Shown in pieces: positions 39,479 to 54,729 of a DNA stretch of 64,000 nt. Within the stretch, counting starts at the first letter, position 1. Every line of letters begins with the position of its first letter. Below the pieces are notes generated by a model that ran no database searches, was not told the origin of the DNA, and saw only the letters and a list, made by a program, of their open reading frames with translations. Location of the stretch: positions 4,285 through 68,284 of the forward strand of contig CADEEA010000007.1 of assembly GCA_902826245.1 (NCBI GenBank), given 5' to 3'. The DNA comes from an uncultured Alphaproteobacteria bacterium. GTDB taxonomy: Bacteria > Pseudomonadota > Alphaproteobacteria > Caulobacterales > Aquidulcibacteraceae. Both the position numbers and the translations under genes were made by a program.

Positions 39479-40221
39479 TGCTCAAGGGGCGCACAATAGT
39501 TATCACCGGCGCCGCGCGCGGCGTAGGTTTGGCCGCCGCCAAAGCGTGCGCTCGCCATGGTGCGCGACTCGTCCTGGCTGACCTACTCATCGACCTCGGC
39601 AAGGCCGAAACCCAAAGCCTAGTCGAAGGCGGCGCCGAGGCCCGGTTCGTATCCATCGATTTAGACGCCCCCTCTTCGATTGAAGCGTTTGCGGCTGATA
39701 TCAAAGCGCACGAAGGTGGCGTCGACGGCTTAGTGAACAACGCCGCCATCGCTACCAATGTCGGCGGCGCGGGCTTTGAGGACATCGACCCAGCGCTCTG
39801 GGACAAGGTTATGCGCGTCAATGTACGCGGCACGTGGCTTGTCACACGCGCCCTTTCTCCGCTGTTCGGCAAGGACGCCCGCATCGTCAACATGGCGTCC
39901 GACACCGCGCTATGGGGACCGCAACGGCTCCTGGCCTATGTAGCGAGCAAAGGGGCGGTGATTTCCATGACCCGTTCACTGGCGCGCGAATTGGGGCCGC
40001 GCGGCATTGGCATTGTGGCGCTCGCGCCCGGGCTGATGCGCAACGAAGCCACCGAATACGTACCCGCCGAGCGCCACGCCCAAAACGAAAAGGGCCGCGC
40101 TGTACCCGGGCCGCAATTTCCCGAGGACATCGTCGACATAATCGCCTTTCTGCTGACGCCCGCAGCGCTGCCGCTAACCGGGCAAGTCATTCCCGTCGAC
40201 GCTGGCTTTGTGTTTGTTTAG
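39475..40221 (+). CDS. Short-chain dehydrogenase/reductase
   Basis: TGAARGVG, NNAA and YVASKG motifs. Confidence 0.93.
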   Translation: MMLKGRTIVITGAARGVGLAAAKACARHGARLVLADLLIDLGKAETQSLVEGGAEARFVSIDLDAPSSIEAFAADIKAHEGGVDGLVNNAAIATNVGGAGFEDIDPALWDKVMRVNVRGTWLVTRALSPLFGKDARIVNMASDTALWGPQRLLAYVASKGAVISMTRSLARELGPRGIGIVALAPGLMRNEATEYVPAERHAQNEKGRAVPGPQFPEDIVDIIAFLLTPAALPLTGQVIPVDAGFVFV

Positions 40222-40232
40222 CGAGGCGCTGC

Positions 40233-41420
40233 ATGAGCTTACGCTGCCCCATCCCATTTTCGGACCTAGCCCCCATCAATGGGGCCCCCGCACCAACGCG
40301 CTTCTTGCCGCCTGCTGCGTACAATTCGGAGGAATTTCACGCCTTTGAACTCGCTTCGGTGTGGCGCAAGGAATGGATAGCGGTGGGCCGCTGTGAGGAA
40401 ATCGCCGCGCCTGGAGATTATTTCACTGTCAGCATCGGCGAGGACCCGCTCATCGTCATCCGCGGCGACGACCAGGCGATCCACGCCATGTCAGCGGTTT
40501 GCCGCCACCGCGGCATGCTGGTCGCTGACGGCGCAGGCCATTGCAAGGGCCGGTTCGTATGCCCCTATCACAATTGGACCTATGACCGCCGCGGTAACCT
40601 CGTCGGCGCGCCTGGCATGCATGATGCACCAGGCTTTAGGCGTGAAGAAAATGGACTCCCGGCGGTTCGAACCGAGATCTGGGAAGGCGTCATCTTCGTC
40701 AACTTCGATGCGGCCGCGCCGCCCTTGGCGCCGCGGCTGGCGTCACTAGCGCCGATTGTGCGCGATTGGCGGCTGGCGGAGTTGCAAAACGAAAGCGTGG
40801 TCGATCCAACTGCGAAAATGCACTTCGATTACGATTGGAATTGGAAGATCTACGCCGAAGGGCAGAGTGAGTGCTACCATTGCGATAAGCTGCACGGCGA
40901 TACGCCCAGCATGCATGGCATCGATTTCGCCAGCATGAACATGCTAGTGAACGAACCTGACAACGGCGCCTTCGCATTCAGCCTGCGCACTAAGGCGATC
41001 GATCACACGCTAAACCACCTCGGCAAAGCGGTGCTTCCGCCGGTGCCGACTCTTTCGGAAGAACAGCGCTGGCTTTCCTATTCCATCGTCATCGCACCCA
41101 ACATCTTCATGCAATTGATGTCGGACTGCGTGATCCTGCTTTGTTGGTTCCCCAAGCGCGCGCAATCCATGCGGATGAAGCGGTTCCGCATGTACCCACA
41201 ATCAACACTGCACCTACCAGATTTTCTAGCACAGCGCGCGCCCGAAAGAGTGGCGGCACGTTATTTCGTGTCGCAGGACGATGTCGCTTTCGAGAGCGTG
41301 CAACAGGGCTTGCGCTCACATTTCGCGCCGCGCGGCCCTATCGCCTCGGGAGAGCCGATCTTGAGCGGATTCAATCGTTGGCTAATTGATCGTTACCGCG
41401 CCATGGAGCGGCAAGCCTAA
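40233..41420 (+). CDS. Rieske oxygenase alpha subunit (choline-monooxygenase-like group)
   Basis: CRHRG...CPYHNW Rieske motif; ECYHCDKLH and QDDVAFE mononuclear Fe ligands. Confidence 0.9.
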   Translation: MSLRCPIPFSDLAPINGAPAPTRFLPPAAYNSEEFHAFELASVWRKEWIAVGRCEEIAAPGDYFTVSIGEDPLIVIRGDDQAIHAMSAVCRHRGMLVADGAGHCKGRFVCPYHNWTYDRRGNLVGAPGMHDAPGFRREENGLPAVRTEIWEGVIFVNFDAAAPPLAPRLASLAPIVRDWRLAELQNESVVDPTAKMHFDYDWNWKIYAEGQSECYHCDKLHGDTPSMHGIDFASMNMLVNEPDNGAFAFSLRTKAIDHTLNHLGKAVLPPVPTLSEEQRWLSYSIVIAPNIFMQLMSDCVILLCWFPKRAQSMRMKRFRMYPQSTLHLPDFLAQRAPERVAARYFVSQDDVAFESVQQGLRSHFAPRGPIASGEPILSGFNRWLIDRYRAMERQA

Positions 41421-48260: not shown

Positions 48261-48381
48261 GCTTATCCGCCCCGCTCTGGACTCTCTTGGCTACCACAGC
48301 GCATTCTTCCGGTTTAAGCGAGCGCAGCACCAAGCGCGCCGGAGCCAAGGCGACTTGACCACTTCCCTAAGATAGTTTTGA

Positions 48382-48392
48382 TTGTCAGACAA
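48382..48392. promoter_or_regulatory. Operator copy 5 (perfect TTGTCAGACAA)
   Basis: Between the divergent MFS and Rieske genes; flanks extend the symmetry (TTGAT...ATCAA). Confidence 0.72.
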
Positions 48393-48431
48393 TATCAACA
48401 TCGCGGCTTTGGCCGTGCGGCCGGCAGAACC

Positions 48432-49478
48432 ATGGCGCAGGATCAAAAGGACCGCATCGACGAGCACTTGAGCAGGGGCCTTAAGGGTCTTTGGTATGTC
48501 GTTGCTAAATCTTCTGACTTGAAGACTAGCAAAGTGCTGGCGGTGCGGGCGCTCGGCCGCGAACTCGCGCTGTGGCGTGACAGCAGGGGCAAGATCGGTT
48601 GCGTAGAAGACTTCTGCCCGCACCGCGGCGCGAGATTGTCAGCTGGACGCGTAACGGACGGTCACATCGCCTGCAACTATCACGGCGTTCAGCTCGATGC
48701 GAATGGCGTGGTCGCCAAGGTGCCTGCCCTGCCGAATTGCATTCTGGAAGGCCGAAAAGCGATCGATGCCTTCAGCGTATTTGAGGCGCATGACGCGATC
48801 TTCGCCTACTTCCCGAGTGCGGATCGCCCGAGGGCTGATCCTCCAACCCTGCCATTCGAACTAACCGGCGGAGACTACTCATCCTTCCTCACAACATCGG
48901 TTTGGCGTTGCAATTATCGCTACGCACTCGAAAACGTCGCCGACCCGATGCACGGCCCCTATCTGCATGGCGATACGTTCACGCTCTCAGGCGGCGCGAA
49001 GCAGGACGAAGTGGAGCTGACAACCGTCGATGATGGGTTCACAGTCGCGCGGGTCGCCCAGCAAGGCGAGAATTTCGACTGGGCCCACGTCGTTACCGAG
49101 GCGGGCCTGTTCTACATGCGGGTCAACATCCCCTATCCACCTGCAGGCGGACCAGGGGGAATTATGCGCGTGGTCACGTGCGTTACCCCGATCGATGAAA
49201 ACTCGTGCCGAATCTTCTTCTGGCGAACCCGCAAAGTGAGCGGGCTCGCGCGCGAAGTATGGCGCTTCATGTTCCGAGCCGCGTTCGAGGAGCGCCATTG
49301 GTACGTCTTGGAGCAAGACCGGAATATGTTGGAGAGCTTGGCGCCCAACGCTCGCGACCGTGAAATGCTTTATCAGCACGATATAGGCGTAACTCGCCTG
49401 CGCCAAATGATGCGGCGTATGGCCAAAACGCAAATCGAAGCGGAGAGCCGCGACGCTCCGCGAACCGCCGCAGAATAG
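48432..49478 (+). CDS. Rieske oxygenase alpha subunit (VanA/TsaM-like, alpha-only type)
   Basis: CPHRG...CNYHG Rieske motif; ENVADPMHGPYLH and EQD ligands. Confidence 0.92.
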   Translation: MAQDQKDRIDEHLSRGLKGLWYVVAKSSDLKTSKVLAVRALGRELALWRDSRGKIGCVEDFCPHRGARLSAGRVTDGHIACNYHGVQLDANGVVAKVPALPNCILEGRKAIDAFSVFEAHDAIFAYFPSADRPRADPPTLPFELTGGDYSSFLTTSVWRCNYRYALENVADPMHGPYLHGDTFTLSGGAKQDEVELTTVDDGFTVARVAQQGENFDWAHVVTEAGLFYMRVNIPYPPAGGPGGIMRVVTCVTPIDENSCRIFFWRTRKVSGLAREVWRFMFRAAFEERHWYVLEQDRNMLESLAPNARDREMLYQHDIGVTRLRQMMRRMAKTQIEAESRDAPRTAAE

Positions 49479-49513: not shown

Positions 49514-50740
49514 ATGACCAACGCAGCCTTACCCGCGACGAAGGAGGCCGCGAATTGGCCGCTGGTGCTTTGCGCTATGTTGGGCGTGGCTGTCTGCTGT
49601 ACGCCAATCGCGATCTTGAGCCTCAGCGTGTTTTTTATCCCCCTGGGGGACGCGCTGGGATGGGGTCGCGGCGAGATCGCCGCAGCGCTTTCCATTCTGG
49701 CGCTTTCCATGGGGGTGGCGACCCCATTCGCGGGACGACTCATTGACAGGCTTGGCGTCAAGCCTGTCCTGGTTACATCCTTGTTGCTCTATGCGGGGTT
49801 CATGGCGGCTACGCCATATTTGATATCTCGCTTCGGGCTCTTGGGGTTCTACGGCGCCTATGTCGTCATCGGCATTGTCGGCGCCGGATCGAACACGGTC
49901 GCCTACACGCATGTACTCTCCGGCTGGTTCGACAAGGCGCGCGGCCTCGCGCTGGGCTTTGCGGTGAGCGGCATCGCCGTCGGCGCGGTGGTGGCGCCGG
50001 CGCTCGCGGCCTACTTGATTGAGGCCTATTCCTGGCAAGTCGGGTTTTACGGGCTGGCGGCGCTGCCGGTCCTTGTCGGCGCGCCAATTGCGTTGTTCGC
50101 CATCAGCGAGGCGCCGACGATCACCGCCGCGCATGAGAAGAAGGCTGAGGCGCCAGGCATGGATGCGGCCACCGCTTACAAAACCCGCGAATTCTTAGTG
50201 TTGTTCACGGTGTTCCTGATCGTGGCCACCTGCTTGCACGGCGTGCAAATTCACTTGCCCTCCTTGCTGGAGGATCGCGGCCTCACCACGCAAGCTGCGG
50301 TTGGCGCCTTCAGCCTACTGTTTGCGGTGACGGCGGTGACGCGCATAGCGGCGGGATTCTTGTTCGACCGCATGTTCGCGCCCATCATTGGCGGCGTCTT
50401 ATTTGTTCTTGGCGGCATCGGCATCGCCATGATGATGCCGACCTGGGCAGCGCTCTATTATTTGATCGCGGCGGCGCTGATCGGCATCGCAACTGGGGCT
50501 GAAACCGACCTTCTGGCCTATCTCACCGGGCGCTATTTTGGCTTGAAGGCGTTTGGCCAAGTTTATGGCGGCCTGTTCCTCGCCTTCATGATTGGCAGCG
50601 CCGTCGGCCCTTATGCGCTGGGCTTCGGCTTCGACGCCACCGGCAATTACGACCTCACGCTCACAGCGTGCGCAGTGGGCATGCTTATCGCGTGTGGTCT
50701 GCTTGTGACGCTGCCGCGTTATCCTAAGTTGGAGGCCTAG
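49514..50740 (+). CDS. MFS transporter (OFA/monocarboxylate-like), paralog of 46992-48260
   Basis: GRLIDRLGVK, WFDKARGLALG and AETDLLAYLTGRYFG. Confidence 0.9.
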   Translation: MTNAALPATKEAANWPLVLCAMLGVAVCCTPIAILSLSVFFIPLGDALGWGRGEIAAALSILALSMGVATPFAGRLIDRLGVKPVLVTSLLLYAGFMAATPYLISRFGLLGFYGAYVVIGIVGAGSNTVAYTHVLSGWFDKARGLALGFAVSGIAVGAVVAPALAAYLIEAYSWQVGFYGLAALPVLVGAPIALFAISEAPTITAAHEKKAEAPGMDAATAYKTREFLVLFTVFLIVATCLHGVQIHLPSLLEDRGLTTQAAVGAFSLLFAVTAVTRIAAGFLFDRMFAPIIGGVLFVLGGIGIAMMMPTWAALYYLIAAALIGIATGAETDLLAYLTGRYFGLKAFGQVYGGLFLAFMIGSAVGPYALGFGFDATGNYDLTLTACAVGMLIACGLLVTLPRYPKLEA

Positions 50741-51600
50741 CCGCCGCGGAACCAATCGGTGATTTCACTGCCGGTGGCGAACCAAACGTCCTTGTGCGCG
50801 GCGATATGAGCCAGCGCTTTATCGAGGTGTAAGGCTCGGAATGGGTGCCCGATGAGAAACGGGTGCAGGGCGATCGACATCAAGCGAGGCGTCCTCTCAC
50901 CTTCCGCGTATAATTGGTCAAACTGATCCACAATAATGTCATGGAAAGCCTTGCCCGTCCGCCCTTGGTGCAAGAACACCGGGATGTCGCCGACTTCAAG
51001 CGTGTAGGGCAAGGACAAGATCGAGCCCGCGCGCGTGCTCATCTCGTAAGGCAATTCGTCATTGGCCCAGTCCATTACATAGTCGACGCCTGCCTCTTTC
51101 AGGAGGTCCAGCGTGTTGTTGGTTTCGGTAAGCGCCGGCCCCAGCCAACCGCGCGGGCGCTTGCCACTCGCCTGCGCAATTCGATCAAGAACGCCAGCAA
51201 TAATTGGTTGTTCGGCCTCCGGCGGCATACCGGTGAACAGCATGGAATTGGTCGGCCCATGCGCAACCCATTCCCAGCCGAGCTTGTTGCCCTCTTCAAC
51301 TATGCGCGGGTACTCGTCGCAAACCTCGGAGTTAAGCGCGGCCGTGGCCTTCAGCCCGTGCTTGGCCAAAATCTCCATCACCCGCCACACACCCACCCGC
51401 GCGCCATAATCGCGCCAGGCATGGTTCAGGACGTCTGGGCTTAAGCCCGCCGTCATCGGCGTCATCGACATCGCTGGCTTGCCCCACTGGAAATGCTCGA
51501 TGTTAGGCGTGATCCACACGCCGACACGGGCGTCATTCGGCAATTTGCGAGTCGGCCGATCGACAATCGGCGAATAGTTGAATCGATTATGCCCGGTCAT
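50737..51600 (-). CDS. Polysaccharide deacetylase-family amidohydrolase (PuuE-like)
   Basis: WRDYGARVG, PRGWLGPAL, DWANDELPY and IALHPFLIG motifs. Start could also be 51615. Confidence 0.88.
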   Translation of the reverse strand: MTGHNRFNYSPIVDRPTRKLPNDARVGVWITPNIEHFQWGKPAMSMTPMTAGLSPDVLNHAWRDYGARVGVWRVMEILAKHGLKATAALNSEVCDEYPRIVEEGNKLGWEWVAHGPTNSMLFTGMPPEAEQPIIAGVLDRIAQASGKRPRGWLGPALTETNNTLDLLKEAGVDYVMDWANDELPYEMSTRAGSILSLPYTLEVGDIPVFLHQGRTGKAFHDIIVDQFDQLYAEGERTPRLMSIALHPFLIGHPFRALHLDKALAHIAAHKDVWFATGSEITDWFRGG

Positions 51601-51618
51601 GTGTGCGCTCTCCAAACC

Positions 51619-51855
51619 TTAAGCACTGGATTTTTTGATCGGCGGGAACACCTGCCCGCCTTCCCCATCAAACAGATTGATCACCCGATAGGGGCAGCTC
51701 CGCGCCGCGCGCAGCAACACATCATCCGAGGAGGCGCCGCTGTCGCCGAGCACAACCTTGCCATCCTCGCCAAGCGAGAACGTCTGCGGCGCCAGTTGCA
51801 CACACTTGCCGTGCGCCTGACACTTTTCGCGGTTGACCCGTACTTCGAACCCCAT
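51619..51855 (-). CDS. Ferredoxin, CxxHxxC...CP ([3Fe-4S]-type)
   Basis: CQAHGKC...SCPYRVI. Confidence 0.88.
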   Translation of the reverse strand: MGFEVRVNREKCQAHGKCVQLAPQTFSLGEDGKVVLGDSGASSDDVLLRAARSCPYRVINLFDGEGGQVFPPIKKSSA

Positions 51856-51864
51856 TGTGGCCTT

Positions 51865-52332
51865 TCAGATGATGAATTGCAGCAGCGGCAACTCGCGCTC
51901 GCTGTTGATCAAGAATACTGTCTTGCGGGCGATGCGAAAATCCTCGCCGGCGCGGCGCAACGCGTGCACGCTGCGGCCGATCCATAGCTGCTGCTCTGCG
52001 GTCCGCGCCACGCCAAGGATAAAGTTCGAGCCCACTTCGCACTTGTCCTCGCGATGGCTCAGAATCTCGATGTTTGACACCACGCGTCGCATGGCCCCGC
52101 GCGCGCCCTCGACAGCAAGCACCGAGCCGGATTTCAGGCGCGCGACCCTCTGTTCGATGCGCGGGTAGTCGTCATTGACGATAGATACTTTTCCTGGCTC
52201 CCCGCCGGCGCCGATCGGAACCTGGTAGACTCCGTCCTTGTCCCAAAGCGCGAGCCAGCCGGAATAATCCATCTCGTCCATCAACCGCGCCTCGCGGAAG
52301 AGGAACGCCTCGACTGCGGCCTGCTCGCTCAC
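51865..52332 (-). CDS. Aromatic ring-hydroxylating dioxygenase beta subunit
   Basis: FLFREARLMD...WLALW, RRVVSNIEI and FRIARKTVFLIN. Confidence 0.92.
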   Translation of the reverse strand: MSEQAAVEAFLFREARLMDEMDYSGWLALWDKDGVYQVPIGAGGEPGKVSIVNDDYPRIEQRVARLKSGSVLAVEGARGAMRRVVSNIEILSHREDKCEVGSNFILGVARTAEQQLWIGRSVHALRRAGEDFRIARKTVFLINSERELPLLQFII

Positions 52333-53576
52333 TCCCCGTCCTCCATGAGCGAAACATAATGCCGCCAGAAGCCACGCAAGTGCGTCTCATCGCGTGTCAT
52401 GCCGGAACGGCCTCCATCCGGCATTGAACGCTCGCGGTGCATGCCGCGGCCAATATAGAGCCGATCATCACCGCGCGCCTGCATGCCGACTTGGTTGCGC
52501 TCCATGATCTCGACATCGTCTGGCGACACAAAGCCAGCCGAGCCGAACATGAATTCGTGATCCGAGAGGCGCGCTTCGTTAATCTCGGCGGGCGCGCCCT
52601 TGAGCATGACCGGGAAATAATAGGAATGCGTTCGATCCACGCTCACCGGCTGCACAACGCGCAAATGTGTGATCACGTACATCAGGTTCGGGAATACATA
52701 GAGCAGCGGCGCCATTGTGCTCAACATGGCCGCCGCCTTGGCCTCGCCATGGCGCGCTTTCAGCTTGGCGATGTATTCGAGACGCGCCGCACTAGGTTGG
52801 CGTTTGGGCGGGTCCATGGGCGCGCCGCGATAATCTTCCACCATGTGCCCACCCGGCAGAGAACGGATCACATCAGGCACTTCGTCCGTCGCAAGCGCGG
52901 TAACGTCAAAACCGGTGCGCTTGGCGTAAAGGTCGAAAGCGACCCCGTGTATGAAGGGGCCATGATAGTCGCCCTCCATCGAGTTCTCCGGCATGTATTT
53001 CCAATTGCCGCGATAGACGACCTTCTGCTCGCCGGCGTCGACCGCAATTTCGCCCTCAGGCGAGAGATCCATGAACAGGTCGAGAAATTCTGTGACGCCG
53101 CCCAAATGCTCGGCCAAGCTCTGCCCTTCTGCAGCGACGCTGGCGAACACTAAGCCGCGATAGCTGTCCTGGCGCGGCAACGGTGTGAGGCCGAAGCGCT
53201 CCTTCTCGAGATCGTAATCATAGCCATCGTCAAAAGTCGGCGCGACAAGCTCACCGGTATTGGCATAGGTCCAGCCGTGGTAGGGACAGACAATGCTCTT
53301 CGCCACACCGCGCTCGGCGAAACACACCAAATTGGCGCGATGACGACAGCGATTGTAGAACACGCGTACCTTGTCATCGTTGCCGCGCACCATAATCACT
53401 GGCTGCAAGCCGATTTGTCTCCGCACGAAGTCGCCCGGCTTTGGCACTTCGCTTTCGTGGCCAACATATACCCACACCCTGTACCAGATGCGCTCCAGCT
53501 CGCGCTGAAACAGCCCCGGGTCGCGGTAGACGCTGCCGCGGACAACGGCGTCCTGGGCTAATGGAGCATCAGTCAT
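52329..53576 (-). CDS. Aromatic ring-hydroxylating dioxygenase alpha subunit
   Basis: NRCRHRA...CPYHGW, EGDYHGPFIH and DDVE motifs. Confidence 0.93.
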   Translation of the reverse strand: MTDAPLAQDAVVRGSVYRDPGLFQRELERIWYRVWVYVGHESEVPKPGDFVRRQIGLQPVIMVRGNDDKVRVFYNRCRHRANLVCFAERGVAKSIVCPYHGWTYANTGELVAPTFDDGYDYDLEKERFGLTPLPRQDSYRGLVFASVAAEGQSLAEHLGGVTEFLDLFMDLSPEGEIAVDAGEQKVVYRGNWKYMPENSMEGDYHGPFIHGVAFDLYAKRTGFDVTALATDEVPDVIRSLPGGHMVEDYRGAPMDPPKRQPSAARLEYIAKLKARHGEAKAAAMLSTMAPLLYVFPNLMYVITHLRVVQPVSVDRTHSYYFPVMLKGAPAEINEARLSDHEFMFGSAGFVSPDDVEIMERNQVGMQARGDDRLYIGRGMHRERSMPDGGRSGMTRDETHLRGFWRHYVSLMEDGE

Positions 53577-53579
53577 CGG

Positions 53580-54668
53580 TCAGTACGGCTCATAATCGCG
53601 AAGGTTGGGTATGACGTGTTCGCCGAAGAGGCGGATTGAACGCATCAACGCCTCCTCGGGCATGTCGCCGAAATTGAACTCGCCAAAAAACGTATTGAAA
53701 CTTCCCTCCTTGGCCCAAGCCCGCAACTTGTTCGCGACGGTGTCAGGCGCGCCGATCAACACGAGGTCCTTTTCGATCAGGTAATCAGGGTCGAGCATAT
53801 TGAGGATGATCTCGCCCGCGCCTGGATCGTTGCGGCTTTCGAAATATGCGGCGGTTTCCTTTTGCTTCTTGCGGATTTCCTCCCAGTCGTCGCCGGTCGA
53901 AAAGAACCCTTTATAAGCGTTGCCGGCGTCGGCCTTTGCGCGCGAGAGCGCGATCTCATCGGTCTCATCAACGTAGACTACCGTTGAGTAGGCGATGTTC
54001 GGAACACCAGCGTGGCCGTGCTGCTTCCAACCAGAAAGATAAGGCCCGTAGCGAGCATGAGCTTCTTTGCGCGGAAACAGCAGAAAATAGCCCGAGTGCA
54101 TGCCAAGCTCGGCACACAATTCTAGCGTCGGTGGATCACGGGTTTCCATCCACACGGGTGGACATGGTTTCTGGACTGGCCAAACGGATAGCTCTAGGTC
54201 CTTGACCTTGATCAGCGCGCCCTCCCAACTAGCCGGCGAACCTTGTTGGAACGCCGACTTCATGAAACGGGCGAACTCCTGAGTAATTTCGCGGCGTTCG
54301 GCAAAATTCGCGCCGAAATGTTTGAAATAGCTGTCCTGGATGCCTGGTACCAAGCCTACTTCTATGCGCCCGTTGGTGAGCTGATCGGTGAGCGCTATCT
54401 CCTCCAGCAAGCGGATCGGGTTATGCAAGGGCACAACATGGCCCATGGCCCCCACACGAATCCGCTTCGTCCGCGCCGCTGCCGCTACCGCGAACAGATT
54501 CGGCGACGACATCCAACTCTCGCCCGGCGTGAAATGGTGCTCGACGCTGAACGCATAGTCGAAGCCAACCTCATCGCAGAGCGCGATCTCACGCCACAAT
54601 TGCTCGTAGCGTTGGTGGGGCGTCATGCCGGCCTTGCCCCAGACATGGGCAAAATGGGCAAACCTCAT
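53580..54668 (-). CDS. Luciferase-like (LLM) flavin-dependent monooxygenase
   Basis: VEHHF, RIRVGAM, PIRLLEEIALTDQLTNGRIEVG; GGAGG SD before ATG 54668. Confidence 0.92.
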   Translation of the reverse strand: MRFAHFAHVWGKAGMTPHQRYEQLWREIALCDEVGFDYAFSVEHHFTPGESWMSSPNLFAVAAAARTKRIRVGAMGHVVPLHNPIRLLEEIALTDQLTNGRIEVGLVPGIQDSYFKHFGANFAERREITQEFARFMKSAFQQGSPASWEGALIKVKDLELSVWPVQKPCPPVWMETRDPPTLELCAELGMHSGYFLLFPRKEAHARYGPYLSGWKQHGHAGVPNIAYSTVVYVDETDEIALSRAKADAGNAYKGFFSTGDDWEEIRKKQKETAAYFESRNDPGAGEIILNMLDPDYLIEKDLVLIGAPDTVANKLRAWAKEGSFNTFFGEFNFGDMPEEALMRSIRLFGEHVIPNLRDYEPY

Positions 54669-54729
54669 CGCCTCCTCCAGACATGGCTGATGCGCCAAAC
54701 ACTAATCGCTCGAACACGAAACACAAGGA

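Follow-up and report, generated by a model that had tools for sequence, protein, structure and literature searches.

This analysis concerns a Rieske oxygenase, the small ferredoxin encoded beside it and the reductase that would supply both with electrons. The genes lie in a stretch of 64,000 nucleotides, hereafter the window (G000:C7:4285-68284), on contig C7 (77,706 bp) of an uncultured alphaproteobacterium whose assembly comprises 3.23 Mb in 104 contigs and is 93.6% complete. Three genes on the minus strand form the core of the locus. The first (52329..53576) encodes an oxygenase alpha subunit of 415 amino acids (aa), which matched the Pfam models Rieske (E = 1.9e-16) and Ring_hydroxyl_A (3.7e-12) and carries the Rieske motif C77-x-H79...C98-x-x-H101; its best solved relatives were HcaE-like and BphA1-like alpha subunits. 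The second (51865..52332), of which the start overlaps the stop of the alpha gene, encodes a beta subunit of 155 aa (Ring_hydroxyl_B, 5e-23). The third (51619..51855) follows after a gap of 9 nucleotides (nt), with GAAAGG 5' of its ATG, and encodes a single-cluster ferredoxin of 78 aa with a [3Fe-4S]-type ligand set (Fer4_15, 6.9e-09; Fer4_13, 5.3e-08). All three open reading frames (ORFs) of the initial annotation were recovered at these minus-strand coordinates, and its description of a three-cysteine CxxHxxC...CP ferredoxin directly after the beta subunit was borne out.

The packing extends to a further gene on either side. The unit starts with a luciferase-like monooxygenase (53580..54698, minus strand; Bac_luciferase, 1.1e-49), whose stop lies 3 nt from the alpha start. 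It ends with a PuuE-like hydrolase of the polysaccharide-deacetylase family (50737..51615, minus strand; Polysacc_deac_1), whose match to the allantoinase PuuE model fell under the cut-off of that model. This last gene is separated from the ferredoxin stop by 3 nt if it starts at the TTG at 51615 chosen by the ORF finder, or by 18 nt if it starts at the ATG at 51600, which has GGAGAG 5' of it and is probably the true start. When scanned for promoters and terminators, the operon region scored no better than shuffled sequences. The alpha, beta and ferredoxin genes are confirmed to lie in one tightly packed operon.

We compared this arrangement with 22 related loci, found in a scan of one genome per species, in which the alpha subunit is 56-77% identical to that of the window. 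All 22 loci stem from metagenome-assembled genomes (MAGs). Their hosts belong to at least five phylum-level groups, and include Alphaproteobacteria, Steroidobacteraceae, Eremiobacterota (Candidatus Lustribacter), Binatia and Chloroflexia. One locus, L023, comes from a genome flagged as unpublished (G005), and no conclusion depends on this locus alone. The beta gene followed the alpha gene in all 22 loci, and an intact ferredoxin gene directly followed the beta gene in 17 of them. Hence, the order alpha-beta-ferredoxin is not a product of chance.

The remaining arrangements were diverse. The ferredoxin gene of L025 is broken by a frameshift (L025:11731-11958; G060:C52:195139-195361), which reflects either a pseudogene or an assembly indel error. 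In the L006 genome it was relocated into a LigB-ferredoxin-deacetylase arrangement about 15 kb from the alpha gene, apparently on the same contig. In this relocation, seen in the Steroidobacteraceae genome whose alpha subunit is the most similar (77% identity), the gene of the PuuE-like hydrolase accompanies that of the ferredoxin, and both follow a LigB homologue at a distance from alpha-beta (L055; G047:C93:7341-10562). No ferredoxin was present between the beta and deacetylase genes in L010 and L017, and none was found on the short contig of L011. Homologues of the luciferase-like monooxygenase (66-72% identity) adjoin the alpha gene in 10 related loci, and a deacetylase-family gene follows the ferredoxin, or directly the beta gene, in 14. 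More distant alpha genes were rejected as counterparts: those of 44% identity in two relatives and those of 40% identity on Variovorax and Rhodococcus plasmids are all located in other neighbourhoods, without the three-cysteine ferredoxin.

The ferredoxin

The ferredoxin contains exactly three cysteines (12, 18 and 54), arranged as C12-Q-A-H15-G-K-C18...C54-P, and is the sole Fer4_15 match in its own genome. In an alignment of 17 ferredoxins of its clade C12, C18, C54-P55-Y56-R57 and P71 are invariant, and position 15 is occupied by histidine in five sequences, tyrosine in nine and phenylalanine in three. The clade members also share a conserved C-terminal tail ending in (F/W)P. A profile search among 1.84 billion representative sequences returned 3640 relatives of the ferredoxin. 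The CPYR signature was limited to about a dozen top clusters (at 50% identity); beyond these, the relatives grade into the CXX?XXC family at large.

An AlphaFold (AF2) model of the ferredoxin, with a predicted local distance difference test (pLDDT) score of 84.9, matched the structures 1vjw, 1fxr, 4ov1/4id8 (HaPuxC, Rhodopseudomonas palustris) and 8amp (Fdx of Mycobacterium tuberculosis). The predicted fold is shared by single-cluster [3Fe-4S]/[4Fe-4S] ferredoxins, among them the CxxHxxC protein of R. palustris HaA2. The ligand set suggests that the cluster is of the [3Fe-4S] kind. Ferredoxins of the type CXX?XXC(X)nCP that are linked to cytochrome P450 (P450) show the same spread of residues at the variable position, and all of them were isolated with a [3Fe-4S] cluster (Child et al., PMC6237146).

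The initial annotation raised the possibility of an actinobacterial origin. This idea is unsupported, as the closest relatives of both the alpha subunit and the ferredoxin occur in MAGs of Proteobacteria, Eremiobacterota, Binatia and Chloroflexia. Among solved ferredoxins, two from proteobacteria come closest, the CYP51-ferredoxin fusion of Methylococcus (6mcw) and the R. palustris protein (4id8), with the Fdx of M. tuberculosis only slightly behind. Of the plasmid-borne relatives, most are rhizobial (67 of 84 records), and their identity of 37-43% equals that of the actinobacterial ones. Look-alikes in the Atlas are spread over Binatota, Actinomycetota, Myxococcota and Planctomycetota.

The P450-serving CXX?XXC(X)nCP ferredoxins (HaPuxC, M. 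tuberculosis Fdx, M. marinum Fdx1-11 and 6mcw) share with the ferredoxin of the window the fold and the motif with histidine, tyrosine or phenylalanine. They also share its genomic setting, with a gene beside the oxygenase and the reductase elsewhere (PMC6237146). In contrast to these proteins, the ferredoxin of the window has Rieske alpha and beta genes as neighbours instead of a P450 gene, and its clade has its own invariant C-P-Y-R and (F/W)P tail.

Most of the characterised relatives serve P450s (PMC6237146), and in the L006 genome the ferredoxin lies between LigB and deacetylase homologues rather than next to alpha-beta. Both observations would suit a ferredoxin that serves the PuuE-like hydrolase or a ring-cleavage step, or that is a leftover of a P450 system, instead of serving the dioxygenase. 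We consider this highly improbable. Hydrolases and extradiol dioxygenases require no external electron carrier, whereas a Rieske oxygenase does require an electron donor. Furthermore, four loci (L008, L020, L023 and L024) keep alpha-beta-ferredoxin without the deacetylase, and contig C7 contains no P450 gene, the only two P450 genes of the genome being located on contigs C21 and C3.

Search for the reductase

No reductase was found in the window, which agrees with the initial annotation, nor on the rest of the contig. Whole-genome scans with PF07992 (Pyr_redox_2), PF00175 (NAD_binding_1), PF00111 (Fer2), PF01613 (Flavin_Reduct), PF03358 (FMN_red) and PF14759 (Reductase_C) gave no match on contig C7. 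When the ORFs between 29 and 64 kb and the 9.4 kb past the end of the window were scanned with Pfam, only catabolic enzymes, transporters and regulators came up, and no reductase.

The initial annotation stated that no reductase is present for any oxygenase in the window. This holds in cis, but the genome-wide search revealed a canonical ferredoxin reductase on another contig, C18. It is the only protein in the genome with a Reductase_C domain (C18:37426-38739, 437 aa; Pyr_redox_2, 6.5e-68; Reductase_C, 1.9e-31), and among solved structures it most resembles 3lxd, putidaredoxin reductase, 3fg2, TodA and BphA4. Directly after it lies the gene of a [2Fe-2S] ferredoxin (Fer2, 106 aa), closest to 3hui, Rhodobacter FdVI, terpredoxin and putidaredoxin. 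The pair resembles the redox pairs of class I P450 systems (ArR/Arx, PdR/Pdx and PuR/Pux), with E values from 8e-101 to 2e-94 for the reductase and from 1.6e-41 to 4.3e-23 for the ferredoxin. In contrast to those pairs, however, no oxygenase gene adjoins it; the two genes are situated between a phosphotransferase and a methyltransferase gene.

We also searched for the C18-type reductase in 40 relatives, 24 of the same genus and 16 of the same order. Together with the own genome, it was present in 40 of the 41 genomes. Within the genus it occurred in 23 of the 24 genomes, with 67-91% identity over full-length matches, and the four-gene order APH-FdR-Fdx-PEMT was kept in the three relatives checked. 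Because the pair is present across the lineage, the reductase is a housekeeping enzyme. The oxygenase shows the opposite pattern. Among the same 40 relatives no alpha counterpart exceeded 44% identity, and the G+C content is 0.56-0.61 in the island that carries the oxygenase genes versus about 0.63-0.68 outside it. The island is therefore accessory.

Several other flavoenzymes are encoded in the genome. Proteins with Pyr_redox_2 of the size of TrxR occur on contigs C51 and C9. A reductase-sized Pyr_redox_2 protein on C18 (C18:166-1401) was rejected as a partner of the ferredoxin, since it lacks Reductase_C and is closest to the FSP1/AIFM2 NADH:quinone oxidoreductases. This FSP1-like gene (G000:C18:166-1401; L004) had an E value of 4.5e-32 to an ancestral FSP1 structure. 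Its neighbours at this contig end are genes for a fumarylacetoacetate-hydrolase-family protein and a glyoxalase-fold dioxygenase.

Electron supply to the oxygenase

We propose, with a probability of roughly 0.6, that the locus encodes a three-component Rieske oxygenase, of which the alpha and beta subunits and a dedicated carrier reside on the accessory island, while the missing reductase is the housekeeping ferredoxin reductase of the host on another contig. The chain could be completed in trans because the genome holds the C18 ferredoxin reductase and its [2Fe-2S] ferredoxin. In the proposed chain, reduced nicotinamide adenine dinucleotide (NADH) would donate electrons to the flavin adenine dinucleotide (FAD) of the C18 reductase, which is similar to ArR and putidaredoxin reductase. 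The FAD would in turn reduce the three-cysteine ferredoxin of the island, a member of the CXX?XXC(X)nCP kind with histidine at the variable site. From there, electrons would pass to the Rieske [2Fe-2S] cluster of the alpha subunit and on to the mononuclear iron. The island would thus supply only the carrier matched to its oxygenase, and the reductase would be a core gene of the host. That the C18 reductase reduces the island ferredoxin, and that the ferredoxin feeds alpha-beta, we infer from the gene identities and their linkage. For the former step, it is relevant that all tested CXX?XXC(X)nCP ferredoxins were functional with one ferredoxin reductase (PMC6237146).

The initial annotation regarded this electron chain as unusual. 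This view is not supported, as an alpha-beta oxygenase combined with a [3Fe-4S]-type ferredoxin and a glutathione-reductase-type (GR-type) reductase constitutes the published type V (Kweon 2008, PMC2358900). Examples of type V are PhdABCD of Nocardioides KP7, PhtAaAbAcAd of Mycobacterium vanbaalenii, Terrabacter and Arthrobacter, and NidAB. The system described here shares with them an alpha-beta oxygenase with a Rieske and a catalytic domain and a small three-cysteine (CX5CXnC) ferredoxin, recognised at the sequence level and with its cysteines invariant in 17 sequences. It would also share a GR-type FAD reductase if coupled to the C18 enzyme. It differs from type V in its host, a diderm bacterium with an Lpt system instead of an actinobacterium, and in its reductase, which would be a core gene on another contig. 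In type V systems, too, genes for electron transfer often lie apart from the oxygenase genes and are outnumbered by the oxygenases, and sharing of them is described (PMC2358900).

CxxHxxC ferredoxins have already been solved from proteobacteria, and a published table gives the proteobacterial DitA1 a [3Fe-4S] ferredoxin but no known reductase (PMC2358900). By its entry in that table, the diterpenoid dioxygenase DitA1A2A3 of Pseudomonas abietaniphila BKME-9 resembles the present system as a proteobacterial alpha-beta oxygenase with a [3Fe-4S] ferredoxin, whereas its gene neighbourhood and substrate differ. A literature search on the PdmAB and DitA3 ferredoxins yielded nothing usable. Hence, the electron chain is known in kind, and its oxygenase and ferredoxin are new, uncharacterised members on a widely transferred island.

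Several findings weigh against a supply by the C18 reductase or against the assignment to type V. The C18 reductase has its own adjacent [2Fe-2S] ferredoxin, and the two P450s encoded elsewhere may be its native clients. A dedicated reductase could be hidden in a gap of the genome, which is 93.6% complete and consists of 104 contigs. The alpha subunit scored higher against HcaE/BphA1-type chains (186-160 bits, the highest score against a chain named HcaE) than against the type V enzyme phthalate 3,4-dioxygenase (144 bits). His15 of the ferredoxin could in principle serve as ligand of a fourth iron. Moreover, Reductase_C remained unmatched in 9 of the 21 genomes that bear the island. All six Eremiobacterota are among the nine, and one of the six, the Candidatus Lustribacter record with locus L009, was deposited as a chromosome; the best reductase-like protein of this chromosome record is only 28% identical and lacks Reductase_C. 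The record encodes a Pyr_redox_2 protein of 410 aa and PF00175 proteins. These nine genomes imply that a reductase of the Reductase_C type is not the universal donor.

The same observations bear on a second explanation, in which the ferredoxin is a portable adaptor without a fixed reductase that is reduced by whichever NAD(P)H:ferredoxin oxidoreductase the host provides. In many Proteobacteria this would be an enzyme of the Reductase_C type and in Eremiobacterota another Pyr_redox_2 or FNR-type enzyme, and the donor in the genome studied here would perhaps not be the C18 reductase. Within 10 kb, 21 of the 22 related loci yielded no reductase; L007, with an edge match, was the exception. When 14 reductase-type proteins of the own genome were used as tblastn queries against the 22 loci, only this edge match and one weak match in L019 were returned. 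PF00175 was matched in five island-bearing genomes, but only at a large distance from the cluster or on a different contig. In the Eremiobacterota locus L009, the conserved ORFs that had no assignment were scanned too, and none is a reductase; they encode a Zn-dependent alcohol dehydrogenase, NMT1-like proteins, a beta-lactamase-fold protein, PrpD and others. The adaptor explanation further draws on the spread of the island over at least five phylum-level groups with 56-77% alpha identity, on the absence of Reductase_C matches in the nine genomes mentioned above and on the other flavoenzymes of the own genome (Pyr_redox_2 proteins on C51 and C9, FSP1-like protein on C18).

On the other hand, the canonical reductase has sometimes been drawn into the island. 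In the L007 genome a complete Reductase_C reductase is encoded within the island itself, about 10 kb downstream of the alpha gene, and in the L018 genome such a reductase is found at a distance of about 18 kb, probably on one contig with the cluster. These two cases point to this class as the preferred partner. Besides, the own genome does hold one canonical reductase, and a failure to find a gene in MAGs is weak evidence. We therefore regard the adaptor explanation as unlikely for the genome studied here. Reductase_C was matched in 12 of the 21 island-bearing genomes, and where a Reductase_C-type reductase is present it is likely to be the partner. The broader claim that the CPYR-clade ferredoxin travels as an adaptor with one alpha-beta oxygenase across at least five phyla, tapping unrelated host reductases that include a so far unidentified donor in Eremiobacterota, is somewhat more plausible, but we advance it only tentatively and with considerable doubt.

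Supply of the island ferredoxin by the housekeeping reductase would show how a mobile catabolic island stays functional in diverse hosts, as it brings its oxygenase and a fitting carrier and leaves the oxidation of NADH to a host enzyme. For expression of this oxygenase family, it names the carrier to be co-expressed and a concrete reductase candidate. It also flags the Eremiobacterota as hosts in which the three-cysteine ferredoxin would probably have another electron donor. The general understanding of electron transfer to Rieske oxygenases is unchanged by these findings.

Other oxygenases and carriers of the island and genome

Two further Rieske oxygenases are encoded on the island, both by an alpha gene only. 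The second oxygenase of the island (39834..41420, plus strand) matched Rieske and Ring_hydroxyl_A, and its true start is probably internal; neither a beta subunit nor a carrier gene lies beside it. The third is VanA-like (48378..49478, plus strand) and matched Rieske and VanA_C. A VanB-type (PDR) reductase for these alpha-only oxygenases, consisting of a flavin domain, NAD_binding_1 and Fer2, was not found in the whole 93.6%-complete genome, in which the sole PF00175 match is a reductase with FAD_binding_6, NAD_binding_1 and Fer2 within the paa cluster on contig C33. In total, the genome contains eight Rieske oxygenase genes and two P450 genes versus one Reductase_C reductase, an instance of the 'numerical imbalance' of Kweon et al. 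(PMC2358900).

The initial annotation proposed that one ferredoxin is possibly shared by all three oxygenases of the island. The lack of carrier or reductase genes adjoining either alpha-only oxygenase fits this proposal, as does the lack of a VanB-type reductase, and carriers common to several oxygenases have been documented in other bacteria (PMC2358900). Yet the ferredoxin gene is packed between the beta gene and the next gene, and across the related loci it tracks alpha-beta, with or without alpha-only oxygenases nearby. Two loci without a ferredoxin after the beta gene, L006 and L017, contain VanA-like genes, whereas most ferredoxin-bearing loci have neither a VanA-like gene nor a 55%-identity alpha-only homologue within 10 kb. 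Other carriers also occur in this genome, namely the [2Fe-2S] ferredoxin on C18, a Rieske ferredoxin on C47 and a fusion of a Rieske domain with FMN_red on C6. The proposal is thus unsupported, and we rate sharing by all three oxygenases as very unlikely.

The Rieske ferredoxin on C47 belongs to a second alpha-beta Rieske oxygenase at the start of that contig (G000:C47:1020-3218; L029), again with no reductase visible. The fusion on C6 (G000:C6:40621-41838; L046:3619-4839, minus strand) comprises about 370-406 aa, with an N-terminal Rieske domain closest to the oxygenase-coupled Rieske ferredoxins (NDO, CarAc, TodB and BphF) and a C-terminal NADPH-dependent flavin mononucleotide (FMN) reductase domain. 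Such a protein may act as reductase and carrier in one, supplying Rieske oxygenases without further components. It was not found in any of the 40 relatives, and orthologues with 66-72% identity were found in three of the 21 island-bearing genomes, two of which gave no Reductase_C match. As these orthologues are so few, and unlinked to the island, we rejected the fusion as the missing reductase of the island.

The island is a horizontally acquired breakdown island. Its amidase, TauD-family enzyme, deacetylase and luciferase-like monooxygenase recur, together with other island genes, in many of the 22 related loci. Because amidases, hydrolases and ring-cleavage genes surround the cluster, the substrate is probably a nitrogen-containing aromatic compound. 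The Zn-dependent alcohol dehydrogenase of L009 (L009:6741-7847, minus strand) adjoins the luciferase-like monooxygenase and has counterparts in 11 related loci, but none at the equivalent place in the window. Between Eremiobacterota and Alphaproteobacteria this enzyme is 74-98% identical, which is above the identity of the oxygenase itself.

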